Source: a phage
Direction: 5' to 3' (one strand)
NCBI GenBank assembly: GCA_025726505.1
Contig: GCA_025726505.1_4340.1
DNA: 42,918 nucleotides
How positions within the stretch are numbered: position 1 is the first letter of the stretch; every line of letters starts with the position of its first letter. Positions 1-14,160 of the stretch are shown here, in pieces. The position numbers and the translations under genes were made by a program. A model generated the notes under the pieces. That model did no database searches. It was not told where the DNA came from and saw only the letters and a program-made list of their open reading frames with translations.

Positions 1-32
1 AAAAAAAAAATCCCGGCTGGGTCAGGGCCGGG
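1..32 (-). terminator. Rho-independent terminator ending the leftward early/lysis operon
   Basis: Stem CCCGGC (12-17) / GCCGGG (27-32) followed on the minus strand by a 10-nt U-run (A10 at 1-10 on plus strand), 67 nt after the endolysin stop. Confidence 0.6.
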
Positions 33-98
33 GTGGAACTGGAGAGCAGAGGGATGGAGCAGGAGGTGATTTAAGTATCGTCTGATTACTCTCAGGTG

Positions 99-587
99 TC
101 AACCTTTCACCGCGCGGCCAATAGCCTCTGCCTCCTGCCACGGTTTACCGTCGAACAGCGCCAGTCGCCCGGCGGTACGACGGCGCAGGCCAAGTAATGG
201 TTTGCCGTTCTGATTGATGAACAACGCCAGTTTAGCCCGCAGCGTCGCGATGTCGCCTGAGCGCAGTGCCTTCCCGGTCCCGGTAGTAGCCGCAATCGCA
301 CCAGCACCGGCGTTATACACCAGGTCGCACACAGCGTCGAACTGCGCCTGTGTCAGGGAGTGGTGTGCTGCCGCGTCAACCGCAGCTACGGCCTTAGCCA
401 TATCACGATTCAGTAACAGGAGGCCTTGTCCCGGGGTGATGGTCTTGCCTGGCGTTACGTCTGGCCCATAATGACCGTACCCAATAGTCAGGTACTTCTC
501 ATTTGGCGTAGCACGATACGCAGTTCCGCGGAACCCCTCAAATGCTGCGGTGAAATGCAACCCATCATCTGAAATGTTTCGAGACAC
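99..587 (-). CDS. Endolysin, GH24 (T4/P22-type) lysozyme
   Basis: Translation carries the phage lysozyme core AAFEGFRGTAYRATPNEKYLTIGYGHYG and aligns by eye with P22 gp19; ORF track 99-638 trimmed to in-frame GTG at 587 preceded by GGAGGA (595-600). Confidence 0.85.
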   Translation of the reverse strand: MSRNISDDGLHFTAAFEGFRGTAYRATPNEKYLTIGYGHYGPDVTPGKTITPGQGLLLLNRDMAKAVAAVDAAAHHSLTQAQFDAVCDLVYNAGAGAIAATTGTGKALRSGDIATLRAKLALFINQNGKPLLGLRRRTAGRLALFDGKPWQEAEAIGRAVKG

Positions 588-837
588 GCTTATGTCCTCC
601 GTATGACAGCCACGCCTGACGAATCTGGCGCAGCGCAACTAATGTGATTAACGTCTCAGGCAACGTTGGCGACATGCTGCCTTGTAACAGGTGGATACAT
701 CCGGCGGCGCATACGATAGCGGTCAGGATATAGAGCACCCGACCGAATAGCCCATCGTCCACGCTGGGATGGTACACATTAAACAGCGATGTGCCCCCGA
801 TTGCCAGCATACCGCCGAACCAGAATAACTCATTCAT
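565..837 (-). CDS. Holin-like / antiholin-like membrane protein (2 predicted TM helices)
   Basis: 90-aa product with hydrophobic segments LFWFGGMLAIGGTSLF and VLYILTAIVCAAGCIHLL; ATG at 837 preceded by GAGGAGG; overlaps upstream holin stop and endolysin start. Confidence 0.55.
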   Translation of the reverse strand: MNELFWFGGMLAIGGTSLFNVYHPSVDDGLFGRVLYILTAIVCAAGCIHLLQGSMSPTLPETLITLVALRQIRQAWLSYGGHKRVSKHFR

Positions 838-1138
838 CTGTGCCTCCTCGACGTGCGATGTATTCTCCGGCAACGATACTGGAGAGACGGGAATAGATGG
901 GCATCCAGAGAACGGCGATGATAAAGCCCAGGCCTGCTATTTCACGGTCGCCCGTGATGCCAAACCATTGAGCCGCGAGAGGTGCGCCAAACACGGCGCA
1001 GGTGAAGCCAGTAGCAATAAAGCACAAGCCGTCGATAGGGCCAGAAATAACGGACTTATGTTGTCGTAGCCCGATGACCCCTCCGGCGAATGCGGCAGCG
1101 AGAAGCCACCCCGTCACTGTTTCAGTAAATTTATCCAA
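830..1138 (-). CDS. Holin (3 predicted TM helices)
   Basis: 102-aa product with three hydrophobic segments and charged C-terminus (ARRGGTDE); TTG start with GGAGG 7 nt upstream; sits directly upstream of second membrane protein and endolysin. Confidence 0.6.
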   Translation of the reverse strand: MDKFTETVTGWLLAAAFAGGVIGLRQHKSVISGPIDGLCFIATGFTCAVFGAPLAAQWFGITGDREIAGLGFIIAVLWMPIYSRLSSIVAGEYIARRGGTDE

Positions 1139-1197
1139 GATGAATCCTCCAGGTGCGTATTAAGTATGCAGTAACTGGAGGATAGCACGGTTAGGAA

Positions 1198-1638
1198 TTA
1201 TCCTAATAGTTGTTTGGTAATAATATTGCCGCCGGTGTTGGTGTCGAACTTCGATGCAACGACTACGCCACCATGTGCTGTACTACCTAAATACATAGCA
1301 GCCAGCGCATAAGGCGCGCCGGAACCTACAGCGGCAAAGCCGTCTGCAACCGCAATAACCGAACTAAGGGCACAATCCCATGATTTATAAAATGCGACTT
1401 TATACACCTTTTCTGCGTCTTTCATGTACACCAGGGCTTCGAAATCGAAGTCATAATGTCTGGGCTGTAGGATATACGGGCAGTCTATAAGCATAGTGCC
1501 AACTCCGGCGTCACCCGCTACCCCAATAGCAACAAATTCGTTCTCGTATATCTTTGTGTCTGTGTTGTAGTAGTTACTTCCGCACACAACACGGGTGTCG
1601 CAGGCCATTGTCTTTCCATCAAATGCAATAGTAGTCAT
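1198..1638 (-). CDS. HslV/proteasome-beta-like N-terminal-nucleophile hydrolase (putative protease)
   Basis: 146-aa product begins MTTIAFDG (Thr right after Met) and contains AVGSGAPYALAA, matching the HslV pattern MTTIVSV...IGSGGPYAQAA recalled from E. coli; ATG 1638 with GGAG RBS; ATGA overlap with upstream gene. Confidence 0.55.
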   Translation of the reverse strand: MTTIAFDGKTMACDTRVVCGSNYYNTDTKIYENEFVAIGVAGDAGVGTMLIDCPYILQPRHYDFDFEALVYMKDAEKVYKVAFYKSWDCALSSVIAVADGFAAVGSGAPYALAAMYLGSTAHGGVVVASKFDTNTGGNIITKQLLG

Positions 1639-1973
1639 TTATGTCTCCAGATGTATTGTCGTCTCTGTGGTTTAGTCGGGATATCTTCATATCCCAGCGA
1701 TTTCCAGTAATTAAATAGTCGATTAGCGATAGCTGCACGTTCCTGTGTTTTGAACTCACCGAGGTTCACGGCCTTCCCGTTCTGGAATCCACAGGCGCGG
1801 ACCGCTTTGCGTCTGGCCTGAATCTCGGGGTACAGTGCATTACGGCGTCGCTTATGAATGCGGGTCTTCGCTCTCGGTGACAGCGGCGCAAGGCCGCTTC
1901 GTTTCAGGATGTCAGTTGCGAGGCTTATATTCCGAGAATCTCGCGGGCCATTTCTTCTGTAACTTTCGAACAA
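1635..1973 (-). CDS. Hypothetical Arg/Lys-rich protein (possible nucleic-acid binding)
   Basis: 112-aa basic ORF; only in-frame start is TTG at 1973, 49 nt inside the upstream gene; stop overlaps the HslV-like start. Confidence 0.4.
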   Translation of the reverse strand: MFESYRRNGPRDSRNISLATDILKRSGLAPLSPRAKTRIHKRRRNALYPEIQARRKAVRACGFQNGKAVNLGEFKTQERAAIANRLFNYWKSLGYEDIPTKPQRRQYIWRHK

Positions 1974-2122
1974 GGTTCGTACATTACCTGTTCAGCGAAT
2001 TCTCGTAACTTTGCTTCGAGTTTCAAATAAGCGTCGTATTCCACATAATCTCCGTATGCATACTCAACCATCTCGGGCTCCGGCAGACCCCACGCGTTTA
2101 CCTCGTATCTCTGTACCGTCAC
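1925..2122 (-). CDS. Hypothetical small protein, paralog B of a tandem pair
   Basis: Probable GTG start at 2122 with GGGAGGGG RBS (track ORF extends to 2164); shares VQRY...Y(V/L)KLEA(K/E)L core with the adjacent gene. Confidence 0.5.
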   Translation of the reverse strand: MTVQRYEVNAWGLPEPEMVEYAYGDYVEYDAYLKLEAKLREFAEQVMYEPCSKVTEEMAREILGI

Positions 2123-2295
2123 TCCACCCCTCCCACATGTGTAACTGACCCACAGTTCGCGCACTCGACGTAATCCGGGAACTGGTCTTTGTATTTCTGT
2201 AACTCAGCTTCTAGCTTCACGTAGTCTTCGTATTTAACGTATCCACCGTCAGCGTCCGCTACACAAAACCCGTTATTAGAATATCTCTGTACCAT
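2119..2295 (-). CDS. Hypothetical small protein, paralog A of a tandem pair
   Basis: Probable ATG start at 2295 (track ORF extends to 2301); MVQRY...YVKLEAELQKY plus C-terminal CANCG motif. Confidence 0.5.
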   Translation of the reverse strand: MVQRYSNNGFCVADADGGYVKYEDYVKLEAELQKYKDQFPDYVECANCGSVTHVGGVE

Positions 2296-2297
2296 AA

Positions 2298-2501
2298 TCA
2301 CTTCTCATGTTTACCAAGTCGCTTAGGTGAGCAGATAGCGCGTACCTCTGAATCTATGGGCTTGTCACCCTGGAACAGGAAGTGCGCGTTCTCTGCGGCG
2401 CGTGCCGCTGACTGGCACGCCTCCATCGAGTAAAACGTTTCTGCTGCCGCTAGTTGCATCTGGCCTGTGTACAGTACCCAGATAAAGAGGATGCTGGTCA
2501 T
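2298..2501 (-). CDS. Hypothetical small protein with hydrophobic N-terminus (signal peptide or membrane anchor)
   Basis: 67-aa product from ATG 2501 (ATGA overlap with upstream stop); N-terminus MTSILFIWVLYTGQMQLAAA. Confidence 0.5.
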   Translation of the reverse strand: MTSILFIWVLYTGQMQLAAAETFYSMEACQSAARAAENAHFLFQGDKPIDSEVRAICSPKRLGKHEK

Positions 2502-3034
2502 TCGTAGTGAACCTCTTTTTCTTCTCCGCAAAGCCGGCACTTATTAGTCTCTACCCCGGCGGAATACTGCACTACCCTCCAATCGTGTTTGCATTCCTGA
2601 GTATCGTTTTTCGGTTTATATGCCTTGTCGTCCCACTCACGTTTACCACATTTAGAGCAAAGCTCACTACCAGGAACGTTGTTCGGATTGCCTTCGCTGA
2701 GAAACAACCCAGGCATAATAATCCAAGAGTGCTCGCATTCCTGAACGTCTTCCTTACGGCAACCGGATTGCTCGGGTCCGTGTTCGCCTACTACGTAGCT
2801 CTTCCATTTAGGCAGTGGGCCGCCGTGGTTGGTTACACGGTCGAAGTCCTCATTCATTAGTTTTATTGTTTCCTGCAACTCAGCCACCAGCGCCGAAGCA
2901 TCACGTAACTGGTTCTTGAGTGACAACACCTCATGGGCCAGGTCTTCGCACTGTTGCTTGTAGGGGTTGTTCGTTAGCTGCTGCCGTAGTTGGTTAAGCA
3001 GGAACTCGATTACTGCGTCGTTGTTACTGTTCAT
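2498..3034 (-). CDS. Coiled-coil protein with two tandem zinc-ribbon-like repeats
   Basis: 178-aa product; N-terminal heptad-like region (LLNQLRQQL, LKNQLRDASALVAELQETIKL); internal repeat QECEHSW...CSKCG and QECKHDW...CRLCG. Confidence 0.7.
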   Translation of the reverse strand: MNSNNDAVIEFLLNQLRQQLTNNPYKQQCEDLAHEVLSLKNQLRDASALVAELQETIKLMNEDFDRVTNHGGPLPKWKSYVVGEHGPEQSGCRKEDVQECEHSWIIMPGLFLSEGNPNNVPGSELCSKCGKREWDDKAYKPKNDTQECKHDWRVVQYSAGVETNKCRLCGEEKEVHYE

Positions 3035-3149
3035 CTTCTACCTCCCCGAAGAACGCGCACGCAGTATCTGCATCGCAAATAATTGGTCTGTCTGTTGTCA
3101 CATATGCCGATTGGCTCTCACCCAAAGTCATTTCGCTGTAATTAATCAT
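3024..3149 (-). CDS. Candidate 41-aa leader micro-ORF
   Basis: ATG 3149 preceded by GAGGAGAGAG; stop overlaps the start of the 2498-3034 gene; below the ORF-track size cutoff. Confidence 0.3.
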   Translation of the reverse strand: MINYSEMTLGESQSAYVTTDRPIICDADTACAFFGEVEDEQ

Positions 3150-3180
3150 CTTCTCTCTCTCCTCTCGCTTCGATAACTGA

Positions 3181-3209
3181 ATAGTATTCTATTATATCTG
3201 TGTGTGCAA
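3181..3209 (-). promoter_or_regulatory. Promoter-like element copy A (TTGCAC-N17-TACTAT with internal AATAG-N4-CTATT)
   Basis: Minus strand reads TTGCAC (3209-3204), 17-nt spacer, TACTAT (3186-3181); near-identical to copies at 4359-4387, 25820-25848 and 35100-35128. Confidence 0.5.
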
Positions 3210-3402
3210 GTAAATTTTATTGGTGTTTAGTGTCGCTAATTAACGACAGTTTCGTTGTTGCGATTTCCGCAAGAATCAGCGCCACTGTTGCGTTTCGTGA
3301 AAGTGTCGCCTTTTGACGACACTAAGCTAAAGTTGTACGCTGCTGTGTAGCAGCGTAAGTCACTCAGTCAATTAGTAACCTTTTGACCTGTTACACCACC
3401 TG

Positions 3403-3591
3403 TTATACCGGCGAGGGCGGCTCTGGTAACGGCATCCAGTGAGTAATATCACCGTGATATAAACTCTTTGCGGGACCCCAGTAGCCATCTGAATTAACCC
3501 GCATAACCTCACAGCCGACAAAACCATCAGTTACAAGAACGTATTCGTAAGGCTCCGGCATCCGCTCACTACACTTAATCCACTCGCTCAT
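3403..3591 (-). CDS. DUF551-like phage protein
   Basis: 62-aa product ends ...GDITHWMPLPEPPSPV, the characteristic DUF551 motif as recalled. Confidence 0.75.
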   Translation of the reverse strand: MSEWIKCSERMPEPYEYVLVTDGFVGCEVMRVNSDGYWGPAKSLYHGDITHWMPLPEPPSPV

Positions 3592-3594
3592 AAA

Positions 3595-3738
3595 TCACCC
3601 CTTATTCATCGCATACTGCACACCAGCTTTCCACGCCCGCCACGCGAGACGCGTCTTAACGTTCAGGTACTCTTTCTTAGAACCCTTGTTAACTGGCAGA
3701 CCCTCGACGATGGCCCACCGTTCAAATGCTTCTCTCAT
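3595..3738 (-). CDS. Candidate 47-aa hypothetical protein
   Basis: ATG 3738 preceded by GAGGA; stop overlaps the start of 3403-3591; below the ORF-track cutoff. Confidence 0.4.
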   Translation of the reverse strand: MREAFERWAIVEGLPVNKGSKKEYLNVKTRLAWRAWKAGVQYAMNKG

Positions 3739-3741
3739 AAC

Positions 3742-3942
3742 TTAGTCCTCAATAGTCACATATTCACGTCTACGCACGTACAGTTCTTCCCCGCAATGCT
3801 CAACTGTACACCCGTAATCGTTATAAGTTATAACCTCGAACTCATCGCCTACTAATACCCCAAAATATCTCAGTGGATGGTCGCAATATCCCGGCGGAAG
3901 AACATAATCAACATCAGTTATACGAATTCTCATTAACGGCAA
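3742..3942 (-). CDS. Hypothetical protein (Cys/His-containing)
   Basis: 66-aa ORF in operon register; CDH...C-x4-HC arrangement. Confidence 0.5.
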   Translation of the reverse strand: MPLMRIRITDVDYVLPPGYCDHPLRYFGVLVGDEFEVITYNDYGCTVEHCGEELYVRRREYVTIED

Positions 3943-4136
3943 CCTCCCTCAGAGTCGTCGGCACTGGCATCATGATTCGATGCCGTTCGTAAGGAGTGCA
4001 GGAGTTTAACCAGCATCTCCGGTGAGGATGTTGAAATTTCTTCACCATCAAGTGTGACAATCGCATATCGTTTAATTGTAAAATTAACTTCTATTAATCT
4101 ATGGTGTTTCAGTTCTTCAAATAATTCTTCCATCAC
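3933..4136 (-). CDS. Hypothetical acidic protein
   Basis: 67-aa ORF overlapping neighbours by 10 and 4 nt. Confidence 0.5.
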   Translation of the reverse strand: MMEELFEELKHHRLIEVNFTIKRYAIVTLDGEEISTSSPEMLVKLLHSLRTASNHDASADDSEGGCR

Positions 4137-4324
4137 TTCGCCCCTTTGAATTTAAAATTGTTGCCGATTAATTCCAGGTTATCGCGAAAGGCGAACCCGT
4201 TTTTCTTTCTCACCAGACCCCATACGTCGACAAGATTATCCTCGTCATACTTATTCTCGTCCTGCAACACTAATACGTATTGTCCGCCGCGTTTTGTTCT
4301 AGCCAACTGACCCTTCTTAAACAT
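4133..4324 (-). CDS. Hypothetical protein, first gene of leftward early operon segment
   Basis: 63-aa ORF, ATG 4324, GAGG-containing leader directly downstream of promoter copy B. Confidence 0.55.
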   Translation of the reverse strand: MFKKGQLARTKRGGQYVLVLQDENKYDEDNLVDVWGLVRKKNGFAFRDNLELIGNNFKFKGAK

Positions 4325-4358
4325 AACCCTCGCTCCTCTGTCTCGTTCCGATAAGTGA

Positions 4359-4387
4359 ATAGTATCCTATTATGTTGGGGTGTGCAA
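4359..4387 (-). promoter_or_regulatory. Promoter-like element copy B (TTGCAC-N17-TACTAT)
   Basis: Minus strand TTGCAC (4387-4382), 17-nt spacer, TACTAT (4364-4359); leader TTATCGGAACGAGA..GAGG resembles the leader after copy A. Confidence 0.5.
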
Positions 4388-4634
4388 GAGAATAGTTACG
4401 TTGCCGTTGTGATTCTTCTGAGAAGGTTGTGCCTTTATTCTTATTACTTGGTAACTAAAGGGCAGGCCTTAAGCCTGCCCAATAATCGTTACATTTTTAC
4501 GGTTGCGAATCTACGGCACTTTAAGAAAATCAGATACTTAAGAGATATGCTGCCGATGAGAATAGAGCTTGCCCAGGGCAACCGGAGATACTAAGGAAGG
4601 AAAGTTACAATAATTCGAATGTTCAGTAAACTTT

Positions 4635-4678
4635 CGCTTAACACTTTGCTTGCGCTGCGCGCAGCTGCGTTTTAAGCG
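4635..4678. repeat. Nested inverted repeat in divergent control region
   Basis: CGCTTAA (4635-4641) pairs with TTAAGCG (4672-4678), enclosing perfect 12-bp palindrome GCTGCGCGCAGC (4654-4665). Confidence 0.6.
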
Positions 4679-4767
4679 GTTTTACAAGGTGAACAGGAAT
4701 CAAAGTAACTAAGATATAGAAGCACCTTAAACGAAGATTTTCATAATGTCAATAGGTGCGATTATGT

Positions 4768-4796
4768 TTGATTTCCCATTATTCTCAATGTATACT
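4768..4796 (+). promoter_or_regulatory. Sigma70-like early rightward promoter
   Basis: TTGATT (4768-4773), 17-nt spacer, TATACT (4791-4796), about 30 nt upstream of the first rightward ORF. Confidence 0.45.
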
Positions 4797-4828
4797 CTGT
4801 TTCGTTAACTGATGATGAGGGTTTGAGA

Positions 4829-4999
4829 ATGACACAGAATGAGGTAGCTGAGCGTATTGGGGTTACTCGCCGCACGCTTAATAACTGGTTAAAGAGTGGG
4901 AAGTTCCCGGATTGTTGTATCCGTATTATGGGTCGCCGGCAGCCTGGTACGTTCGACCCAGAGAAAGTGGAAGCGTGGATTAAGGAGAACGTTAAATGA
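4829..4999 (+). CDS. Small HTH DNA-binding protein (AlpA/excisionase-type fold)
   Basis: 56-aa ORF QNEVAERIGVTRRTLNNWLKSGKFP...FDPEKVEAWI; GAGG RBS; ATGA overlap with next gene; preferred over track ORF 4896-5084 in another frame. Confidence 0.55.
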   Translation: MTQNEVAERIGVTRRTLNNWLKSGKFPDCCIRIMGRRQPGTFDPEKVEAWIKENVK

Positions 5000-5229
5000 C
5001 CGAGTTCCAGTCACGAGTATTTACGGCGGTCGTTTCGTTAACCCGCAAAAAAGGGTCGTGCAGCGTTATGGACTTGCGCCGTAGTTATTTTAGGTACTAT
5101 AGTTCAGCCATTATTGAAGGGTCGTTGAAAGTGCTGGTTAAATCCGGTGTCGTGAAAAACGTTGGCGGGAAATATAGCGCCGTTGCAGAAGTTCGCGGAA
5201 TGACCGCTACTTTAGAAGACCTGGAATAA
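4996..5229 (+). CDS. Hypothetical protein with C-terminal EDLE tail
   Basis: 77-aa ORF coupled to upstream HTH gene; ends ...TATLEDLE. Confidence 0.6.
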   Translation: MTEFQSRVFTAVVSLTRKKGSCSVMDLRRSYFRYYSSAIIEGSLKVLVKSGVVKNVGGKYSAVAEVRGMTATLEDLE

Positions 5230-5288
5230 AAGAAAGCCCCGACGCGGTGAACGCCGAGGCCAAATTACTCGCTGAAGGAGCATACAAT

Positions 5289-7529
5289 ATGTCCGATGTA
5301 ATTTTATCCTACTCGTGGTCCCGTCGCAACGCGCGGGCAGAGAAAAAGGATATAAACGTCAGTACCACACACACGGCAACACTGGACGACCTGAAAGAGT
5401 TAATCCAGCCGCTCGATGCCGTTCGTCGCGGAATTGACCCGAAGACCGCGCCTGGCTATATCACCGCCGCGTGCGATTCTACGCACAGCACCGTAAAAGA
5501 CCCGGAAACCGGTGACTTTAAACAAGCGCGTAAAGGCTTTTTCTATCGCTGTGATGCGTCTGTAAGCAAATCGTCGCTGGCGTATCTGGACTTCGACAGC
5601 GCAACACCGGAAGAGTATCAGGAAGCGGTGCGCCTGGTTAAGCGCAGCCGCCGGGCGATGTGCCTCTACACCACGGCATCACATACCGAAGAGTCACCGC
5701 GCTTTCGCGTCGTTATGCCACTGGCCTGCCCGGTTGAAGGCGGCGACATCATCCGTGTTCGTCATGGATTGCTCGAGCACTTCTTCAACGGCATGGGCGC
5801 CGACCGCAGCGGGTTCACTCTGTCACAGCCAATGTACCTGCCGCCGGTAGGCTCTACCGTTATCTGGTCTCGCCGCAACGACCTGATTGACCCGGATGAA
5901 TTACTGGAAGGCATCCCCGCCGTTGACGTTAGCAGCGCATCGGATTACCAGATACCGGAAGAGCTGCGCACTGCGTTTACTGATGCGTTTGAGGCACTGG
6001 CGTTCGAGTACGGCGGTGTTATGACGCCCCGCGGACTGAAAATGTCAGCTACGCCGGAACACGCAGAAAACTACAGCGACCCGACGCCACGCCCGGACGA
6101 CTTCCTGTTGTGCTTCCCACGCGAAGGATATGAAGCGCCGAACGTAACCATGATTCACGACACCGACATTACGGCAACCGAAGGCATGTCACCGAAAGAG
6201 GTGTGGAAGTATGCGTGCGATGCGACTGGTCTGCCGTTCAGTGAAGTCGCTGAGGCAATCGGATGGGGCGCGCGTGAATCTGTTTCGTGTAGCCTGGACG
6301 ACCTGGAAGACGATGAGGACTCAGAGGAGGACGAGCTACCGGAACCGGTAAAGGCTGATTTCGTCGTTGAAGGGTACATGCCGTCGGATTGTATATGGGA
6401 TATTGTCGGGGAATCTGGCACGTACAAATCATTCTATACGCTGGGGATGATGTACCTGAGCGCCGCCGGGTACCGGTTTGCGGGGGCAGACACCCAGCGA
6501 TGCTACCACTTCTATATCGACGGCGAGGGTGGCGCAGCCACACGTACACGTATTGACGCGCTCGCGGCTAAATACGGCGTGGAAGGTAAAGATTATGTAC
6601 ATGTCGTCGATATGGGTGAAGTCGGCAAACTTAAAAGCCTGATTAAGCTAATGCGCGAAACTGCTGGCGGCGAGCCAATCGGCATGGTTGCATTCGACAC
6701 CCTTAACCAGACGCTGGCCCTGACGATTGATAAGTTCGACGAGAACAGTTCATCAACAGCAATCGGTATGGGTAAAGTCATCGCCATCCTGAAAGAAGTG
6801 CGTGACGCGACTAAGGCCGCGGTGGGCGTCGTCCACCATACACCGAAGGGTGGAAAGAAAGCCCGTGGTAGTGGCGCGCTGTATGCGGGTGTTGACGTGG
6901 AACTGACAATCGAACGCGCGACCGACCGCCAGATAAACGTATACCACTCGAAATTCAAGCACGGACCTCAACAGAAGACGGTTGGCATGGTGCTGGAGTC
7001 AGTACAGTTCCGTGAAGCCCCACCGCCGAAAGAATACCGTGCTGTTGAGTTCCTCGGTAGCACGGAGGAATACGGCACAATCGTAAACCTCGACCTGCCA
7101 GAACCACATAAGGCACTTGTGTTGATGCCGTGGGGCTTCGAGCCGTTCAAAACTGACGAGGAGAAAGAGCGCGAAGAAGGGCTGACAAAGGAAGGTAAAG
7201 AAAACGTAAAGAATGCTGTGAAACGTGGGAAGGATGAAGGGCGTAAGGAATCAATACTCGCCGCGCTGGAAGACCTGCAACAGTCAGACGACACCGGACG
7301 AGGGTTTACACAACGGCAGATAGTGGCTAATTCTGGCGACCACGCCATCACCAACCATCATCTCGAGAAGATGCTGAAAGACGGCGAGTTGATGTTAGGG
7401 TGCGATGTTAACGGTGAAGTTATGCCTGGCACATACCGGATACCTGAAAAGATGGGCGACAGATTAAGGCCGAAGACAATATACGAACCGAATGAAATGC
7501 TGGTGGTGACAGAGGAGGATTTGGAATAG
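5289..7529 (+). CDS. Bifunctional primase-helicase (AEP/PrimPol-like N-terminus + P-loop NTPase C-terminus)
   Basis: N-terminal DxD (LAYLDFDSA) and SxH (TASHTEESPRF) primase-like motifs; acidic linker DDLEDDEDSEEDE; Walker A-like VGESGTYKS and Walker B-like MVAFDTL; start moved to ATG 5289 with GAAGGAG RBS (track GTG 5247). Confidence 0.8.
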   Translation: MSDVILSYSWSRRNARAEKKDINVSTTHTATLDDLKELIQPLDAVRRGIDPKTAPGYITAACDSTHSTVKDPETGDFKQARKGFFYRCDASVSKSSLAYLDFDSATPEEYQEAVRLVKRSRRAMCLYTTASHTEESPRFRVVMPLACPVEGGDIIRVRHGLLEHFFNGMGADRSGFTLSQPMYLPPVGSTVIWSRRNDLIDPDELLEGIPAVDVSSASDYQIPEELRTAFTDAFEALAFEYGGVMTPRGLKMSATPEHAENYSDPTPRPDDFLLCFPREGYEAPNVTMIHDTDITATEGMSPKEVWKYACDATGLPFSEVAEAIGWGARESVSCSLDDLEDDEDSEEDELPEPVKADFVVEGYMPSDCIWDIVGESGTYKSFYTLGMMYLSAAGYRFAGADTQRCYHFYIDGEGGAATRTRIDALAAKYGVEGKDYVHVVDMGEVGKLKSLIKLMRETAGGEPIGMVAFDTLNQTLALTIDKFDENSSSTAIGMGKVIAILKEVRDATKAAVGVVHHTPKGGKKARGSGALYAGVDVELTIERATDRQINVYHSKFKHGPQQKTVGMVLESVQFREAPPPKEYRAVEFLGSTEEYGTIVNLDLPEPHKALVLMPWGFEPFKTDEEKEREEGLTKEGKENVKNAVKRGKDEGRKESILAALEDLQQSDDTGRGFTQRQIVANSGDHAITNHHLEKMLKDGELMLGCDVNGEVMPGTYRIPEKMGDRLRPKTIYEPNEMLVVTEEDLE

Positions 7530-7539
7530 GTAGAAAGAA

Positions 7540-7556
7540 AGGGGCGTTAAGCCCCT
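7540..7556. terminator. Hairpin between convergent primase and XRE genes
   Basis: AGGGGC (7540-7545), loop GTTAA, GCCCCT (7551-7556); overlaps the 3' end of the minus-strand XRE gene. Confidence 0.45.
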
Positions 7557-7762
7557 TCACCGAACGCCAGCCACTTGGCGTCTACTTGTAGCACTCCCGC
7601 CAGTTTAAACAGCGTCGCCGGGCGGACGTCCTGAGTTACACCGAGTGCTAGCTGGTTAATTGCGCCCTGGGAAACGCCAGCCATGACCGCCAGACGGCGC
7701 TGGGAGATGCCGAGTTCTTTACGGCGTTGTTCTACGCGAATGCCTAGTTCAGATGGTTGCAT
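7547..7762 (-). CDS. XRE-family (Cro/cI-type) HTH transcriptional regulator
   Basis: 71-aa product with canonical HTH LGISQRRLAVMAGVSQGAINQL; divergent from the rightward operon. Confidence 0.8.
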   Translation of the reverse strand: MQPSELGIRVEQRRKELGISQRRLAVMAGVSQGAINQLALGVTQDVRPATLFKLAGVLQVDAKWLAFGEGA

Positions 7763-7790
7763 GTTAATTACTCCTTAGTTAGTCAATATG

Positions 7791-7809
7791 TGAATAGTAC
7801 CATATTAAT
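7791..7809. promoter_or_regulatory. Operator-like motif copy (TGAATAGTACCATATTAAT)
   Basis: Imperfect copy of the AATAG-N4-CTATT core, 29 nt upstream of the XRE gene start. Confidence 0.4.
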
Positions 7810-7826
7810 TATTTTAGAAAAGCCCA

Positions 7827-7856
7827 TTGACAACATGAATAGTTAGCTATTATAGT
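7827..7856 (+). promoter_or_regulatory. Sigma70-like promoter with overlapping palindromic operator
   Basis: TTGACA (7827-7832), 18-nt spacer, TATAGT (7851-7856); spacer contains AATAGTTAGCTATT (7838-7851); 32 nt upstream of ATG 7888. Confidence 0.55.
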
Positions 7857-7887
7857 TAGCCCATACCAAACGAGAGGAGAGAAACAA

Positions 7888-8388
7888 ATGTTAGAGAAAT
7901 TCTTAGTATTACTGGAACGTTTCGTAGTTGCGCATGAACTTATTGCTGCGAATAGTGCGAAAGAACCGGTGATTGGCTCACCAGAACATTTTGCTGAGTT
8001 TTGTAAGCTGCAAGGTGTAAGTGTAAAAGAGGCTTTAACTAAACCTTCAAAAGAAATCCCGGTCGAAGGGGAAGACATCGTCGACACTAAACCGGCAGAA
8101 GAAGAGAAGCCGAAACGCAAGCCGCGTAAAGCTAAAGTAGAGGAACCAACGCCAGAGCCGGAAGAAGAGAAAGAAGAGGTCGATTACCAGTCTCTTCGGG
8201 ACCAGATTCAGGCTATCGACGATGCAATTATCGAAGGTCCGAGCGATGCCGCGTACGATGATTCTGATGAACTTCTGGAAGAGTTCACCGGTAAGAAAAG
8301 GAAGATTGCTGCGATTAAAGACGAAGACCTGGCTGAATACCTGGAACGCCTGACGGCAATCAAGAACAAGTATTTCGAAGAAGAATAA
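7888..8388 (+). CDS. Hypothetical highly acidic protein with Lys-rich insert
   Basis: 166-aa ORF, GAGAGGAGAG RBS; Glu/Asp-rich (EEPTPEPEEEKEE, ends KYFEEE) with KPKRKPRKAK patch. Confidence 0.7.
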   Translation: MLEKFLVLLERFVVAHELIAANSAKEPVIGSPEHFAEFCKLQGVSVKEALTKPSKEIPVEGEDIVDTKPAEEEKPKRKPRKAKVEEPTPEPEEEKEEVDYQSLRDQIQAIDDAIIEGPSDAAYDDSDELLEEFTGKKRKIAAIKDEDLAEYLERLTAIKNKYFEEE

Positions 8389-8395
8389 CTATAAC

Positions 8396-8411
8396 GCGGC
8401 CTTCGGGCCGC
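8396..8411 (+). other. Intercistronic tetraloop hairpin
   Basis: GCGGCC-TTCG-GGCCGC directly followed by AACTGAGGGTCTGAATT-ATG of the next cistron; no long U-run. Confidence 0.5.
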
Positions 8412-8431
8412 TTTAACTGAGGGTCTGAATT

Positions 8432-8635
8432 ATGGCTATTTTAGCTAAGAAAAGTGGTCTTATGATTTCAGGGCGAGTTATAGAAGAAACAGATAGCTTT
8501 GTATGCTTCCACGCGACAGATAACAAACGCCCTACGTATGTACAAAAGTCGGATAAAACACAAAAAGTTTTCGACGGTGATTTTTCTATGGATGACGTTT
8601 TCGCGTGGATTAATTCTGTGAGGGTAAAGAAATGA
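8432..8635 (+). CDS. Hypothetical protein
   Basis: 67-aa ORF, GAGGG RBS, ATGA overlap with next ORF. Confidence 0.55.
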   Translation: MAILAKKSGLMISGRVIEETDSFVCFHATDNKRPTYVQKSDKTQKVFDGDFSMDDVFAWINSVRVKK

Positions 8636-8904
8636 TTTACCAACTCTACCGCGCCGTAGACAGGCGGGATAACACGGAGGCGCTATGGCTGTTGCGTGCG
8701 CCGTCCGGTGCGCACCAGATGGAAGAGATGGCGTACTTAGGCAAAGTACCGCGGCCCAAAGATATTGGCCGTCACGTGTCGCAGATTAAGCGCACGACTT
8801 TCGCCAAGCCTGACTTTTATGTCTTCGAGTCGATGTATGGGTGGGCTATGCATTGCCATCACCAGACACGACATTTAATTGACCAGTGGGAGAGCAGGGT
8901 ATGA
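8632..8904 (+). CDS. Hypothetical protein
   Basis: 90-aa ORF coupled to flanking cistrons. Confidence 0.5.
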   Translation: MIYQLYRAVDRRDNTEALWLLRAPSGAHQMEEMAYLGKVPRPKDIGRHVSQIKRTTFAKPDFYVFESMYGWAMHCHHQTRHLIDQWESRV

Positions 8905-10166
8905 TTTTAAAGGAACGCGGCGGCAATAATGATGTACACGCCTTACTGTCACCGTCAGGCGCTAAAAAGTGGCTGACGTGCAGTGCATCGCTGGCCTGTG
9001 AAAAAGATATTCCTAACACGTCAGGTAAATCCGCCGTTACAGGAACAGCATGCCACACTATAGCAGAGGTCCACCTAAACCAGTACATCAAAGGCACAGC
9101 GTTGCCGTTAGAGCGTGAAGTCGGCGCTTATGTGCTGGATGAGGGTAAAGGCCAGATTAAGGCACTAATCAGCCCGATGAAAGGCGCTGTACTGATTACC
9201 GCTGACATGGTTGAGCAGGTGCGCAAGTACACCGACTACTGCAAAGCGATTATCGACGTGGCGACTTACGCCAAGCTGGAAATGCGCGTCAATCTTACTC
9301 AGATTCTACACCCCGGGTACAAAGTACCGGCTGAGGGTGAAGAAGACGATTTAGAGACGTTTGGGACCGCGGACCTTGTTGCCGTTCAGGAACTGGCAAA
9401 CACCGACGAGCACATGCTCATTATTGGGGACCTTAAAACAGGACGGCATCGTGTCGAAGCGAAAGAAAACAAGCAGCTTATGCTTTATGCTCTCGGTGTT
9501 TATCGCAGACTCAAGAGACGCTATAACATCACCATGGTTCGTCTGGTCATCTTCCAGCCGTACGCTGGTGGTGCGTCGGAGTGGGACATCTCGGTTGAAG
9601 GTCTGGAGCTGTTCGCTAAGTTTGCACAGAAACGTGCACTGCTAGCACTAGACGCCTATTCCCGTGGTAAAAAGAACCTGAAATCGTCTGACTTCAGGCC
9701 GTCGGTAGATGGATGCCAGTGGTGTCGGTTCTCTGAACAATGTGCCGCGCGTACAAAGACGGTTAATTCTGTACTGGCGGAAGAACTGGAAGACGACTTT
9801 GTGCTGGAACTGACGCCGGAGCAACTCGTAACTGAGTATGAGAAGTTGCCGTTGTTGCGCCAGCACATCGACAAGGTTGAGAAAGCTATGGCTGCCGCGT
9901 TGCATTCCGGTAAGAAAGTGCCTGGGTACAAGCTGGTTGAGGGTAAGAGGGGCAACCGTGCGTGGAAAGACACCGATGCGGTATTTGAGAAGTACGGTAC
10001 TATGCTGCAAAAGGTAGTTCTCATGACGCCAACAGAAGCTGTTAAGGTAATACCGGAAGAAGAACTGAAAGACTTTATTACCCGTAAGCCTGGCACGCCA
10101 TGCGTCGCAACGGCAGACGACAAACGGCCTGAGTGGAATAAGGTTAGTGAAGAAGATTTAGAATAA
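8901..10166 (+). CDS. Cas4/RecB-family PD-(D/E)xK exonuclease with Fe-S cysteines
   Basis: N-terminal Cys (KWLTCSASLAC), nuclease motifs GTADLV...IGDLKTG and QLMLYALGVY, C-terminal CQWCRFSEQC; ends SEEDLE; start at ATG 8901 (track 8886 is GTG). Confidence 0.75.
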   Translation: MILKERGGNNDVHALLSPSGAKKWLTCSASLACEKDIPNTSGKSAVTGTACHTIAEVHLNQYIKGTALPLEREVGAYVLDEGKGQIKALISPMKGAVLITADMVEQVRKYTDYCKAIIDVATYAKLEMRVNLTQILHPGYKVPAEGEEDDLETFGTADLVAVQELANTDEHMLIIGDLKTGRHRVEAKENKQLMLYALGVYRRLKRRYNITMVRLVIFQPYAGGASEWDISVEGLELFAKFAQKRALLALDAYSRGKKNLKSSDFRPSVDGCQWCRFSEQCAARTKTVNSVLAEELEDDFVLELTPEQLVTEYEKLPLLRQHIDKVEKAMAAALHSGKKVPGYKLVEGKRGNRAWKDTDAVFEKYGTMLQKVVLMTPTEAVKVIPEEELKDFITRKPGTPCVATADDKRPEWNKVSEEDLE

Positions 10167-10170
10167 AGTG

Positions 10171-10199
10171 TTGACACCTGAATAGTTAACTATTATAGT
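10171..10199 (+). promoter_or_regulatory. Sigma70-like promoter with perfect palindromic operator
   Basis: TTGACA (10171-10176), 17-nt spacer, TATAGT (10194-10199); spacer contains perfect 14-bp palindrome AATAGTTAACTATT (10181-10194). Confidence 0.6.
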
Positions 10200-10257
10200 T
10201 CTAATCACTGGCCGGGCAGCTCCCGGAGTAAACGAAACTTAAAAGCGAGAAATCACG

Positions 10258-10887
10258 ATGGGTATTAAACTGAATCTGCGTAAAGTAAACACTGCTTGGG
10301 TTAACGTATTCGAACGCGAAAAAGACCGTGAAAACGATGATGGCTCAATCACTAAAGGTCAGTACAGCGCTACTATTATCCTGCCGTCCGACCACGCGCA
10401 AATCGACGCGCTCTACGACACCGTTTACGCGGTAGTCGAAGAAGCGTTAGGCGCCGCCGCTGCCGAGAAATGGATGAAGTCCAACTACGGCGAAGGTAAG
10501 CACATGGATAAATGTGCGATTAAAGACATTGCCGAGCGCGACAATCCGTTCGAAGACTTCCCGGAAGGCTTCTACTTCAAAGCGAAGGCGCAGAAACAGC
10601 CACTGATTGTAACCTCTAAAAAAGGTGAGACTCAGGTAGAGCAGGACTTCAACGTAGACGGCGAACAGATTGAAGGTGAACAGGTTTACAGCGGATGTGT
10701 AGCCAATGTAAGCGTCGAAATCTGGTTCAGCCAGAAATACAAAGTCCTCGGCGTTAACCTGCTGGCGATTAAATACGTCGGTGAAGGTAAAGCGTTCGGT
10801 GGTTCTAAAGCCGCCGCAAGCGTCAATGACCTGGAGGACGACGAAGAAGATGAAGTGCCACGCCGCGAACGTCGTCGCCGTGGTTAA
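10258..10887 (+). CDS. ssDNA-binding / annealing protein, T7 gp2.5-like (tentative)
   Basis: 209-aa product; by-eye resemblance to gp2.5 (NPFEDFPEGFYFKAKA vs MPFFDNGDGTTTFKFK; LLAIKYVGEG); acidic tail NDLEDDEEDE then RRERRRRG. Confidence 0.5.
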   Translation: MGIKLNLRKVNTAWVNVFEREKDRENDDGSITKGQYSATIILPSDHAQIDALYDTVYAVVEEALGAAAAEKWMKSNYGEGKHMDKCAIKDIAERDNPFEDFPEGFYFKAKAQKQPLIVTSKKGETQVEQDFNVDGEQIEGEQVYSGCVANVSVEIWFSQKYKVLGVNLLAIKYVGEGKAFGGSKAAASVNDLEDDEEDEVPRRERRRRG

Positions 10888-10906
10888 TATCTGAATCTGT
10901 TTAATT

Positions 10907-10930
10907 AAGGCCCTTTATTGGGCCTTTTTA
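10907..10930 (+). terminator. Rho-independent terminator/attenuator before the DNA polymerase gene
   Basis: AAGGCCC (10907-10913), loop TTTATT, GGGCCTT (10920-10926) followed by TTTA. Confidence 0.55.
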
Positions 10931-10945
10931 CTAAGGGTCAAAATA

Positions 10946-13219
10946 ATGAGTTATCTGTTCTTAGACTTTGAAACCTTCTCCGAAGCCGATTTGAAGAAAG
11001 TCGGCTCCTATGCTTACGCCGAACACCCGACTACCGAAGTGCTCATCTGCACCTATGCTTTTGATGACGAGCCTGTTCAGGTATGGGACTGCACTGACGG
11101 CAGCGACATGCCGGGAGATTTACACCGCGCGTTACGCCGTCTGGTGAAGCCAAACAGTCGCATTAAGATGGTGTGGCACAACGGCTCAATGTTCGATAGG
11201 CTCATCATGAAGCACTGCTGGGGCTTTGAAATCCCCGTAAGCAACACCATTGATACTATGATTTGGGCGTTTCGTCACGCGCTGCCGGGGTCTCTTGATG
11301 CGTTGTGCGAAGTGTTGGGTGTATCTGCGGACAATGCGAAAGACAAACGCGGCAAGGCGCTGATTCAGCGTTTCTCTAAACCGACGCCGAAGAACTACAA
11401 AATCCGCCGTTACACCGCAGAAACACACCCGGACGAGTGGGCGCTGTTCATCAAGTACGCCGTGAGTGACATCACTGCGATGCGTGAAGTCTTTCATAAG
11501 CTACCGCGGTGGGGTAACTCCGAGTTCGAAGACCGTGTACTGGAACTGGACCAGTTAATCAATGACCGGGGCTTTTTTGTTGATACGGCTCTTGCTGAGG
11601 CGGCGGTAGCGGCAGTGGAACGCCACAAGCAAGAGCTAAAAAACGAGGCCCGCGCAAAATTCGGGGGGAAACTAACGGGCAAAGATTTCCTGCCAATCCT
11701 TCGGGAACTGGCACCGGCTTACGATATCTATAATGCGCAGAAAGCAACGCTAGAGGGTTTGCTAGAGGATGACGACCTGCCTGATGATGCACGTACAATC
11801 ATTGAGATGCGCCTCGGCGCGGCCTCCACGGCGTCAACAAAATATAAGCCGCTCCTGCTAGGACGGTCCAAAGACGGACGACGCCGTGGTTGCATCCAGT
11901 ATGGCGGCGCGAAGCGCACTTTACGATTCGCGGGTAAAGGGTTTCAGCCGCAGAACCTGTCGCGCGGGTACTACCACGACGACCCGACTAACGAGGAAAA
12001 GAAACTTGTACGTCAGCCGTGGGAGTCCGACGAAGACTGGAACCGCAGGCTTAACCCGTTATCATTCGGCATCAATTTGCTTTTAAAGGGTCGGGCGCAT
12101 CGCCGCTTCGATGTATCTAAACTGACGGCCTCGACAGTCCGCAGTTGCATCATCCCAGAAAAAGGCAATAAGTTGCTCGTTGCTGACTACTCGAACGTGG
12201 AAGGGCGCGGGTTGGCCTGGACGGCGGGGGAGACGTCCGCTCTTGAGACGTTCCGCGCGGGGATTGATATCTATTGCGCCACTGCGGGCAAGATGTTTGG
12301 TATGGATCCTATTGAGCTTAAAGCCATCCGTAAGGACCTACGTCAGGTCGGGAAATGTTGCGAACTCGGCCTCGGCTACGAGGGCGGCGTAGGAGCTTTC
12401 ATGACTATGGCTAAAACTTACGGGCTGGACCTCTTTAAAATGACGGAGACAATGCGAGGTACGTTCCCTGACCATATATGGGCCGCCACTGCCCGAGGAT
12501 ACGAATGGGCGCGGATTCAGGAGGCTAAGCGGCCCCCAAAACCCGGTAAAAAAGATGAACGGGCCTCTTATGTGCTGCCTAAAGAAGTGTGGCGCACCTG
12601 CGATGCTATCAAGCGCATGTGGCGCGAGGCCCATCCGGAAACAGTTAAATTCTGGAAGGACCTTAAGGATTCGGTAATTGCCGCAATCAGAAACCCAGGA
12701 CGAGAGTTTTGGGCGGGGGCCAGAGTCCGCCTTAACGGCGACAGAGCTATTCGCATCTGGCGTACTAAAGAGAAAGACAGACAGGGTAACTTTGTGCCGG
12801 GTTGGTGGTTGTGCGTGGAACTGCCGTCTGGGCGCATCATGTCCTACCCTGGTATAGGCTTAAGCGTCACTAAAGAGACTGACGAGGATGGGCGCGTAAC
12901 AACTAACGTTCGCATTAAGTACCAGGGCGAAAATCGGACCACCCGCCAGTGGACAACTTTGTACACCCACGGCGGAAAATTGTGTGAAAACATCATCCAG
13001 GCGTTGTGCCGTGACTTACTAGTTAACGGACTCCTGACGGTCGAGGCAGCGGGCTACCCGATTGTGCTCCACGTACACGACGAATGTGTGGCTGAAACGC
13101 CAGATACGCCGGAGTACACGGTTAAAGAGATGGGCGACCTGCTATGCGCATTACCTGAATGGGCTGAAGGGTTCCCGTTAACATGGGCTGGGGAAGAGGT
13201 GTACCGCTATGCTAAGTAA
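10946..13219 (+). CDS. Family A DNA polymerase with 3'-5' exonuclease domain
   Basis: Exo motif LFLDFETFS at N-terminus; polymerase motif A LLVADYSNVEGR, motif B RKDLRQVGKCCELGLGYEGG, motif C VLHVHDECV. Confidence 0.9.
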   Translation: MSYLFLDFETFSEADLKKVGSYAYAEHPTTEVLICTYAFDDEPVQVWDCTDGSDMPGDLHRALRRLVKPNSRIKMVWHNGSMFDRLIMKHCWGFEIPVSNTIDTMIWAFRHALPGSLDALCEVLGVSADNAKDKRGKALIQRFSKPTPKNYKIRRYTAETHPDEWALFIKYAVSDITAMREVFHKLPRWGNSEFEDRVLELDQLINDRGFFVDTALAEAAVAAVERHKQELKNEARAKFGGKLTGKDFLPILRELAPAYDIYNAQKATLEGLLEDDDLPDDARTIIEMRLGAASTASTKYKPLLLGRSKDGRRRGCIQYGGAKRTLRFAGKGFQPQNLSRGYYHDDPTNEEKKLVRQPWESDEDWNRRLNPLSFGINLLLKGRAHRRFDVSKLTASTVRSCIIPEKGNKLLVADYSNVEGRGLAWTAGETSALETFRAGIDIYCATAGKMFGMDPIELKAIRKDLRQVGKCCELGLGYEGGVGAFMTMAKTYGLDLFKMTETMRGTFPDHIWAATARGYEWARIQEAKRPPKPGKKDERASYVLPKEVWRTCDAIKRMWREAHPETVKFWKDLKDSVIAAIRNPGREFWAGARVRLNGDRAIRIWRTKEKDRQGNFVPGWWLCVELPSGRIMSYPGIGLSVTKETDEDGRVTTNVRIKYQGENRTTRQWTTLYTHGGKLCENIIQALCRDLLVNGLLTVEAAGYPIVLHVHDECVAETPDTPEYTVKEMGDLLCALPEWAEGFPLTWAGEEVYRYAK

Positions 13220-13340
13220 ACTTATTATCGCGGTACTGGCGGGATTCGCCGCCGGTGTCCACTGCCACGAGGGTCAATACAGCATGATGGCCGCCGTACT
13301 GGGCATGTTCATCGCAATTTATCTGTGGGTGCTGGAATGA
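13209..13340 (+). CDS. Candidate 43-aa membrane micro-protein
   Basis: ATG overlaps polymerase 3' end; hydrophobic product; stop overlaps next ATG; below track cutoff. Confidence 0.3.
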   Translation: MLSKLIIAVLAGFAAGVHCHEGQYSMMAAVLGMFIAIYLWVLE

Positions 13341-13426
13341 AAATTTACTGGTTCTATGAAGAAGACTGTCGAATCTGTCCGCGCTGTGGGATTGAGCATA
13401 CGAAACGGGAGGAGTGCGTATTATGA
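13337..13426 (+). CDS. Candidate 29-aa zinc-ribbon micro-protein
   Basis: MKIYWFYEEDCRICPRCGIEHTKREECVL; ATGA-coupled at both ends. Confidence 0.3.
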   Translation: MKIYWFYEEDCRICPRCGIEHTKREECVL

Positions 13427-13886: not shown

Positions 13887-13887
13887 A

Positions 13888-14142: not shown

Positions 14143-14146
14143 TACA

Positions 14147-14160
14147 GGCCCTTCGGGGCC
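14147..14160 (+). other. Intercistronic tetraloop hairpin
   Basis: GGCCC-TTCG-GGGCC followed by TTAACTATAAGGAATTGATAG-ATG. Confidence 0.5.

Follow-up and report, generated by a model that had tools for sequence, protein, structure and literature searches.

The stretch of DNA analysed here, referred to below as the window, is a 42,918-nucleotide phage sequence (contig GCA_025726505.1_4340.1) in which a 29-bp promoter-like element at positions 3181-3209 recurs in three further near-identical copies. The window (42.9 kb) is an essentially complete genome of the genus Kagunavirus, subfamily Guernseyvirinae. It matches the E. coli siphophages Bas73, UTEC10 and NTEC3 at 88-91% identity across most of its length, and its source is a virulent E. 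coli phage. Under a strand-consistent open reading frame (ORF) model, 94.5% of the window is coding and 5.5% is non-coding. In publications, members of this genus are characterised as lytic phages in which lysogeny genes were not detected. No integrase, cI or RNA polymerase is found among the annotations of the relatives Bas73 and SETP3, and no RNA polymerase domain was found in the ten largest ORFs of the window; transcription must therefore depend on the host enzyme.

The four elements had been described in an earlier sequence-only reading of the window, and all of them are present at the coordinates and on the strands given there. We refer to them as promoters A to D:

3209 to 3181, minus strand: promoter A, TTGCAC-ACACAGATATAATAGAA-TACTAT, with a dyad at 3180-3193 that overlaps the -10; serves a small-gene operon (ATG at 3149) running toward the lysis genes.
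4387 to 4359, minus strand: promoter B, TTGCAC-ACCCCAACATAATAGGA-TACTAT, dyad at 4358-4371; serves a leftward small-gene operon (ATG at 4324) and has a terminator-like hairpin ahead of it, at 4480 to 4460.
25820-25848, plus strand: promoter C, TTGCAC-ACCCCAATATAATAGGG-TACTAT, dyad at 25836-25849; serves the island 25877-28025 (start codon at 25877), which includes a weak, below-threshold match to a metallophosphoesterase.
35100-35128, plus strand: promoter D, TTGCAG-ACACCAATATAATAGGG-TACTAT, dyad at 35116-35129; serves a PAPS-reductase-domain gene at 35156-35971 (start codon at 35156).

The hexamer pattern TTGCA(C/G)-N17-TACTAT is seen in all four copies, the spacer ends in ..ATAATAG(A/G)(A/G/T), and the inverted repeat AATAG-N4-CTATT that had been noticed within the elements is exact in each. 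Every element is directed at its downstream gene, as had been stated, with a same-strand start codon 28-34 nt away. Orthologous sites of A occur in Bas73, NTEC3 and the metagenomic relatives L058 and L059. The SETP3 ortholog of B carries a promoter annotation, as does that of C, which uses a third register, TTGCAT-N17-TATTAT. B, C and D are picked up by a 32-nt consensus with at most 3 mismatches allowed, which had 0 matches in 100 shuffles. A leader said to be shared by A and B (TTATCG.A.CGAGA..GAGG) reflects a real similarity, the wording being only approximate (A reads TTATCGAAGCGAGAGGAGAG and B reads TTATCGGAACGAGACAGAGG). Since the related AAACGAGAGGAGAG also lies upstream of gene 7888, this leader looks like a general ribosome-binding context and not a feature peculiar to A and B.

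The selected unit is smaller than the 29-bp cassette that had been taken as conserved. It is a 14-bp dyad, AATAG-N4-CTATT (extended form TGAATAG-N4-CTATTATA), which is found in other registers and in the other orientation too. The window holds seven exact dyads (starting at 3180, 4358, 7838, 10181, 13835, 25836 and 35116) and three with one mismatch at promoter-like positions (7793, 35025 and 42888). An 18-nt core, ATAATAGNNTACTATTCA, has 9 sites in the window against 0.22 expected. In an unbiased count, the dyad and its one-base shift rank among the top gapped 5-N4-5 words of the window, as they do in SETP3 and in L058 and L059. The sequence-only reading had named random scatter inside coding regions as the pattern that would speak against it; five of the seven exact dyads are fully intergenic, even though so little of the window is non-coding. 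One of the other two lies in no ORF other than a mechanically predicted one, whose GTG start is at the motif, and the last lies in the final ~50 nt of the gene upstream of 13888. All exact dyads are at most 60 nt upstream of a start codon. The count of four copies thus describes one real sub-class of a larger family, in which the dyad also occurs at 7793, 7838, 10181, 13835, 35025 and 42888. Nor is the set limited to "accessory or early" units, as replication-gene promoters carry the dyad as well.

At every site the dyad overlaps the core promoter, lying on the -10, in the spacer or on the -35. We call sites type 1 when the TTG of the -35 lies 10-11 nt upstream of the dyad, type 2 when this distance is 4-5 nt, and type 3 when the dyad covers the -35. 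Besides A-D, which are type 1, the family comprises the following:

7793-7822, minus strand: promoter of the XRE gene, with -10 TACTAT (7799 to 7794), a poor -35 and ATG at 7762.
7793-7806: dyad O1, imperfect (AATAGTACCATATT on the plus strand), overlapping the -10 of the XRE gene.
7827-7856, plus strand: type 2 promoter, TTGACA-N18-TATAGT, with the exact dyad O2 (7838-7851) in its spacer; diverges from the XRE promoter and serves gene 7888 and the exonuclease module.
10171-10199, plus strand: type 2 promoter, TTGACA-N17-TATAGT, dyad at 10181-10194; serves the genes for the single-stranded DNA (ssDNA)-binding protein and DNA polymerase, and its SETP3 ortholog is annotated as a promoter.
13825-13853, plus strand: type 2 promoter, TTGACA-N17-TATAGT, dyad at 13835-13848, within the last ~50 nt of the upstream ORF; serves 13888 and the SNF2 helicase.
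42868-42896, minus strand: type 3 promoter-like site, TTGACT-N17-TATATT (10/12 consensus positions), with a degenerate dyad at 42888-42901 (ACTAGTTGACTATT on the minus strand) over the -35.
35005-35033, minus strand: tentative type 3 site, TTGACT-N17-TAAGCT, with a degenerate dyad at 35025-35038 over the -35.

The dyad centres fall at about -12.5 (over the -10; A-D and the XRE gene's own promoter), about -18.5 (in the spacer) and about -33.5 (over the -35 TTGACT). All eight promoter sites lie 28-58 nt upstream of a same-strand start codon. The three type 2 sites are the best sigma70 matches in positions 1-16000, with 11/12 consensus positions, and their extended motif is oriented oppositely to the gene when compared with type 1. 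The AT-rich right arm of the dyad, TACTATTATAGT, offers three overlapping -10-like hexamers, which explains how one operator could be fitted into promoters of several registers. With -35 and -10 hexamers, spacers of 17-18 bp and positions upstream of and facing genes, the elements are, as judged by these features, host RNA polymerase promoters of the sigma70 type. The predicted regulon would then include at least eight promoters, and perhaps 10, each with one dyad inside its core. Promoter-like elements carrying a regulator-binding site and forming a phage regulon had been proposed before; the promoter appearance and the conserved spacer stand, while the unit is the dyad and the promoters number at least eight instead of four.

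The type 3 site at 42868-42896 directly follows a terminator that wraps to the window start, serves small genes and the terminase, and is conserved in Kagunavirus and Jerseyvirus loci. The ends of the window cut within this control region: a poly-A/T terminator hairpin at 1-35 closes the leftward lysis transcript, and in a circular or permuted map the promoter at 42896 to 42868 comes straight after it. Placed back-to-back with D, the tentative site at 35005-35033 is directed at the spanin and head genes. It was missed by the promoter scan because its -10 is weak, and its counterpart in the sister phage fBC-Eco01 is the predicted host promoter HP1. At C, a minus-strand GTTACA-N17-TATATT (25859 to 25831) uses the same dyad as promoter C, so that site C may be a bidirectional promoter pair whose minus strand serves the tail operon.

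Two further ways of reading the type 1 sequence were tried and set aside. The spacer of type 1 contains a perfect TATAAT, but no -35 stands 16-18 bp from it; in related sequences this TATAAT is conserved less than TACTAT, and in copy B it reads CATAAT. The TACTAT hexamer itself is 87-100% conserved in a motif-selected set of 54 distinct related sequences. A sigma54 reading of TTGCA finds a resemblance only in copy C (TAGCAC-N5-TTGCA), without the obligatory GG, and we regard it as coincidence.

Several observations concern the surroundings of these promoters. Near-identical hairpins, AAGGCCCC-loop-GGGGCCTT, each with a T-run, lie at 28030-28049, 35994-36014 and 15933-15952, where they follow the plus-strand island C, island D and the replication block, respectively. 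The hairpins at 28030 and 35994 are scored as terminators on either strand, the one at 15933 only on the plus strand. These hairpins insulate the plus-strand blocks from oppositely oriented structural operons, so that each downstream structural segment needs its own promoter. Between promoter B and the divergent HTH_17 gene, 435 bp at 4388-4822 contain the strong hairpin at 4460-4480, isolated AATAG half-sites and predicted promoters at 4788 to 4761 (minus) and 4768-4796 (plus). Bas73 annotates a 106-aa ORF in this region, where the window has only a 79-aa GTG ORF; the region may encode a small RNA, act as an origin or be what is left of a decayed gene.

The dyad is present at orthologous sites in Kagunavirus (Bas73, NTEC3) and, in the more symmetric form TAATAG-N4-CTATTA, in Jerseyvirus (SETP3, SGPC). 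Dhillonvirus SM_S24 and Serratia phage Smarc4, which share replication-module genes (DNA polymerase family), have no such motif. The Cornellvirus-like phages St162 and LL_sp9 carry a variant, ATTAG-N4-GTAtT, at the same promoters. A scan of IMG/VR for homologs of the XRE protein gave 48 loci, of which 47 (36 Kagunavirus and 11 Jerseyvirus) were analysed further; in all 47, XRE occurs together with 2-6 exact dyads within at most 20 kb. The 48th locus (L054, a Jerseyvirus) has a frameshifted XRE and still two exact dyads. In these loci, whether Kagunavirus or Jerseyvirus, almost every dyad is preceded, on one of the two strands, by a -35 TTG at a distance of 4/5 or 10/11 nt.

The first conservation tables were selected on the motif and were hence partly circular, and the key test was redone with a synteny-anchored alignment. 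The N-terminus of the ssDNA-binding protein served as the anchor and 110 nt upstream of it were compared in 49 loci, which gave 44 distinct sequences from three genus-level groups. In this alignment TTGAC is invariant and the four bases that follow vary; the spacer AATAG is invariant or at least 90% conserved, on a par with the -35 and -10; the central N4 varies; and CTATTATAGT is again invariant or nearly so. Sigma70 is not known to recognise individual bases at about -25 to -21, so that something else must constrain the half-site located there. This bears out the proposal that the spacer is conserved beyond what sigma70 needs. Use of the motif in both orientations cannot be reconciled with a directional element for a polymerase; it is what operators of dimeric helix-turn-helix proteins typically show. 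Taken together, the symmetry, the free centre and the use in both orientations would be the signature of such an operator. Within the same 44 sequences, the 5' leader of the ssDNA-binding protein gene (10200-10257) contains a hairpin, GGCCGGGCAG(C/T)TCCCGG, that is invariant or nearly so across the three groups, matching the promoter in conservation. An RNA element for translational control or autoregulation, of the kind that other phage ssDNA-binding proteins have, is one possibility.

Three helix-turn-helix proteins had been put forward as binders, and one of them stands out:

7547-7762, minus strand: XRE/HTH_3 protein of 71 aa resembling phage 434 Cro, the candidate regulator.
4829-4999: HTH_17/MerR-like protein of 56 aa.
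41232-41492: NinH/Fis-like protein.
4996-5229: a 77-aa protein, a further candidate binder.

The XRE protein matches Pfam HTH_3 (E=5e-12), and in the PDB it comes closest to phage 434 Cro (71 aa), aligned over residues 6-68, with E=7e-12 using a profile and 4e-7 alone. The glutamine aligned to Gln28 of 434 Cro, in the recognition-helix region, is conserved. Operators of 434 Cro are 14-bp dyads. All Guernseyvirinae genomes and loci examined contain XRE, which some GenBank records label "transcriptional regulator Cro" or "repressor". In Bas73 (PQ850603.1) an intact gene at 34027-34239, 92% identical to that of the window, is unannotated, and the record shows a 31-aa ORF on the opposite strand instead. 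XRE is also the only candidate gene flanked by dyads, O1 and O2 both lying between it and gene 7888. The one-mismatch form of O1 is kept across Kagunavirus loci and corresponds to PP5 in fBC-Eco01. With an exact O2 and an imperfect O1, this divergent region has what appears to be the classic layout of an autoregulated Cro-like gene. O1 and O2 lie 43-45 bp apart in Kagunavirus; the distance is 55 bp in Jerseyvirus and 63 bp in St162. These values fit no common helical phase, and the idea of phasing was dropped.

Comparison between genera separates the candidates to some extent. Kagunavirus and Jerseyvirus proteins share ~51% identity for XRE, 84-100% for HTH_17 and 60-64% for the NinH-like protein. 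In St162 and LL_sp9, XRE is only 39% identical, alongside the variant motif; no HTH_17 homolog was found in 26 kb of St162 (syntenic region included) or in 38 kb of LL_sp9; and the NinH-like protein is still 66-69% identical despite the different motif. That XRE diverges with the motif, HTH_17 was not found and the NinH-like protein stays steady favours XRE, if only modestly, and the proteins at 4829-4999 and 41232-41492 are weaker candidates. The difference in motif between the Salmonella phages SETP3 and St162 points to a phage-encoded factor rather than a host one. No XRE homolog was found in SM_S24, and Smarc4, with a diverged XRE and different repeats, is weakly informative. Our word-indexed protein search for XRE reached only relatives of at least 75% identity, and the IMG/VR scan only Kagunavirus and Jerseyvirus. 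The boxes of the host regulators ArgR, LexA, CRP and Fur were also considered for the dyad, and none is known to match AATAG-N4-CTATT.

We therefore favour, with a probability of about 0.5, the reading that A-D are sigma70-type promoters in a regulon of at least eight, whose dyads would be operators for coordinate repression by a dimer of XRE. On infection, the dyad promoters would fire with the host polymerase alone, the near-consensus type 2 promoters unaided at entry and the type 1 promoters more weakly. As XRE accumulates, its dimer would occupy the dyads and occlude the polymerase, turning down early, replication and accessory transcription, and XRE would limit its own synthesis through the weaker, imperfect operator O1. 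A symmetric operator would work in either orientation relative to transcription, and the right arm TACTATTATAGT would supply a -10 hexamer in whichever register is used. The transcription starts, the binding of XRE and the sign of regulation are all predictions from the DNA; we infer repression because centres near -12.5, -18.5 and -33.5 are positions for occlusion, not activation.

A number of points weigh against this reading. The type 1 elements fit the sigma70 consensus only moderately (TTGCAC 3/6, TACTAT 4/6); at 7/12 overall they fall under the scan threshold, with A2 and T6 of the -10 present. No dyad is found at the predicted promoter of the helicase-primase operon (4768-4796, plus), so that control is not genome-wide. 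The extended motif of Kagunavirus is consistently asymmetric, with TG...AT flanks, and the variant of St162 falls short of a real palindrome; a simple symmetric homodimer would lead one to expect neither. At C, the dyad is also part of the sole obvious tail-operon promoter (GTTACA-N17-TATATT), which is awkward for, and unexplained by, a pure early shut-off. The co-variation of XRE and motif comes from three clades, and changes in the recognition helix map poorly onto the base changes. Finally, no 5'-end mapping for any Guernseyvirinae was found in the searchable literature.

Some of these points are better served by a different binder, be it HTH_17, the NinH-like protein, the 77-aa protein or a host factor, an alternative that we consider fairly unlikely. 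HTH_17/Xis-type proteins typically bind oriented sites, which would suit the TG...AT asymmetry and the non-palindromic variant of St162. The 84-100% identity of HTH_17 between the two genera parallels the identical dyad core, and the NinH-like protein is found in all Guernseyvirinae examined. However, St162 and LL_sp9 keep a related motif in the stretches where no HTH_17 homolog was found, the NinH-like protein is well conserved where the motif differs, and none of the rival genes is flanked by dyads as XRE is. A host factor is unlikely given the different motifs of SETP3 and St162, and we know of no E. coli regulator with this consensus. It is also conceivable, with less probability, that there is no dedicated regulator at all: the cassettes would be copies made by duplication or recombination, and the dyad a by-product of AT-rich, -10-like symmetry that allows a promoter to face either or both ways. 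The three overlapping hexamers of TACTATTATAGT, the differing registers, the reverse-strand promoter on the dyad of C and the near-identical flanks (TTGCACACCCCAAT and the leader TTATCG..CGAGA), which suggest copying, are in keeping with this. A by-product would not account for a left half-site in type 2 promoters (about -25 to -21) that is conserved like the -35 across three clades while the N4 drifts. The reverse-strand -35 is moreover absent or weak at A, B and D and poorly conserved at C, and the genus-specific half-site change at all St162 and LL_sp9 sites implies a common reader.

Alternatively, the dyad could be the loading site of a positive factor, either an activator or an antiterminator of the Q/AlpA type, which seems improbable. 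The sub-consensus hexamers of A-D could need help, and several units end in terminators, yet the type 2 promoters match 11/12 consensus positions and need no activator, and the dyad centres do not suit class I/II activation. MerR-type promoters have spacers of 19-20 bp; here they are 17-18 bp, so that a MerR-like twist mechanism does not apply and an activated promoter of this type was rejected. For Q and AlpA, the binding elements sit between the -35 and the -10 (PMC9371919), a position similar to that of the dyad. AlpA is larger, with DNA-contacting residues 128-142 and a ring at the RNA exit channel (PMC9371919), whereas the helix-turn-helix proteins of the window have 56-86 aa and its only HTH_17 protein 56 aa; the position fits, and a Q/AlpA loading site was nevertheless rejected. 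That the repeats are promoters of a phage-encoded RNA polymerase, the label given in fBC-Eco01 after a search with PHIRE, is for practical purposes refuted. PHIRE was designed for recurrent motifs of ~20 nt upstream of genes, and the fBC-Eco01 paper lists seven such sites, but the ten largest ORFs of the window and the annotations of Bas73 and SETP3 contain no RNA polymerase, the sites have -35 and -10 hexamers spaced 17-18 bp apart, and the motif is palindromic and used in both orientations.

The motif itself is not new. The fBC-Eco01 paper reports the PHIRE consensus tgAATAGTa-ccTATTat-T at PP1-PP7, called "Phage RNAP promoters" (RNAP, RNA polymerase), seven sites that include orthologs of A-D and of the XRE operator O1. 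The Golestan paper gives seven PHIRE promoters, and the SETP3 RefSeq record has BPROM promoter features at the orthologs of B, C, D and 10181. These sources record the same motif at orthologous positions and omit the dyad, its orientations and registers, and any connection with the Cro-like gene. Assigning the sites to a phage RNA polymerase is untenable. In the searchable literature, we came across no account of the dyad as the unit of conservation, of its two orientations and three registers, of its presence in the strongest host-type promoters or of a Cro-like link. Searches on MB78, Jerseyvirinae promoters and Jerseyvirus Cro turned up no study of the regulator. The sole Kagunavirus RNA-seq paper (PMC12645636; phage K1B4) gives expression classes that are not mappable onto the genes of the window.

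Among known systems, the closest likeness is to 434 Cro. Both have a 71-aa single-domain HTH_3 protein and 14-bp dyads embedded in core promoters, which are operators in 434 (ACAA-N6-TTGT) and putative operators with a variable centre here. In both, the small protein is encoded beside divergent promoters that carry two or more such dyads, of which one is a poorer copy. The predicted function, lowering early transcription in lytic growth, would also be the same. The half-site sequence differs, and the present dyad is used in three registers and both orientations. In contrast to lambdoid Cro systems, these phages are described as virulent, with no cI or integrase annotated in Bas73 or SETP3, and neither a cI partner nor a lysogeny switch is apparent there or in the published Kagunaviruses. 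Instead of lambdoid OL/OR triplets, single putative operators are dispersed over 8-10 promoters. With no cI and with operators singly dispersed, the system does not resemble a lambdoid immunity region and would be better described as an orphan Cro-like system, the Cro half of a lambdoid switch.

Other likenesses are more limited. T7/SP6-like phage promoters are also highly conserved elements of 20-30 nt repeated upstream of transcription units, but T7-type promoters need a single-subunit RNA polymerase (none was found in the ten largest ORFs here), are directional and have no -35/-10 hexamers. C proteins and their C-boxes, such as C.AhdI, combine a small HTH_3 dimer with dyads on the core promoter and with autoregulation, as would the present system. 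Among the PDB matches of XRE, C.AhdI ranks below 434 Cro, and C proteins act as concentration-dependent activator/repressors of one or two promoters of their own operon, in a different genomic context. Bidirectional promoters can arise from -10 symmetry, and an AT-rich symmetric -10 could fire on both strands, as the hexamers on both strands at C illustrate. In our case, however, the element reaches into the spacer, is conserved where it is not used as a -10, and mostly lacks a reverse -35.

Some features of the window and its relatives lie outside the promoter system. The DNA polymerase gene (10946-13219) is mosaic, with 92.5% identity to Salmonella phage SGP007 and only ~75% to most Kagunaviruses, which elsewhere match the window at ~90%. 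A stop-free ORF of 565 codons at 32407-34104 (plus) is antisense to the scaffold and major head genes; the equivalent region in relatives has only ~306-313 stop-free codons, and the ORF is probably an accident of codon usage, not a gene. In SM_S24, five tandem repeats of ~54 bp (AGATTAAATTTTGCGCGCATTGG...) at 4926-5145 adjoin the helicase gene; they are iteron-like, may mark a replication origin and are unrelated to the AATAG dyad. In St162, many repeated CTCCCCC/GGGGGA blocks occupy 13078-13370, between the primase/helicase gene gp13 and gp14.

A bolder form of our preferred reading, offered tentatively and rather doubtful as a whole, would make the orphan 434-Cro-like protein the master temporal switch of a strictly virulent subfamily. 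One dyad in three registers and both orientations would then control about 10 promoters, back-to-back pairs included; graded operator quality (perfect, one mismatch or degenerate) would order the shut-off or sparing of early, replication, accessory and structural units; and the TG...AT asymmetry would encode a directional effect unlike that of lambdoid operators.

Kagunaviruses and Jerseyviruses are among the phages most frequently isolated for E. coli and Salmonella therapy and food safety, and we found no study of the timing of their gene expression in the searchable literature. Because the repeat has been published for a sister phage, the system is a tidy regulatory circuit rather than a surprise, and a lytic phage that keeps only the Cro half of a lambdoid switch is an interesting, not an unexpected, example. 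If our preferred reading is true, it would correct the published assignment of these sites to a non-existent phage RNA polymerase. It would also provide graded, orthogonal promoter and repressor parts for engineering Kagunaviruses and Jerseyviruses, and a compact set of promoter-operators with one small repressor would explain when the genes of these phages are expressed.

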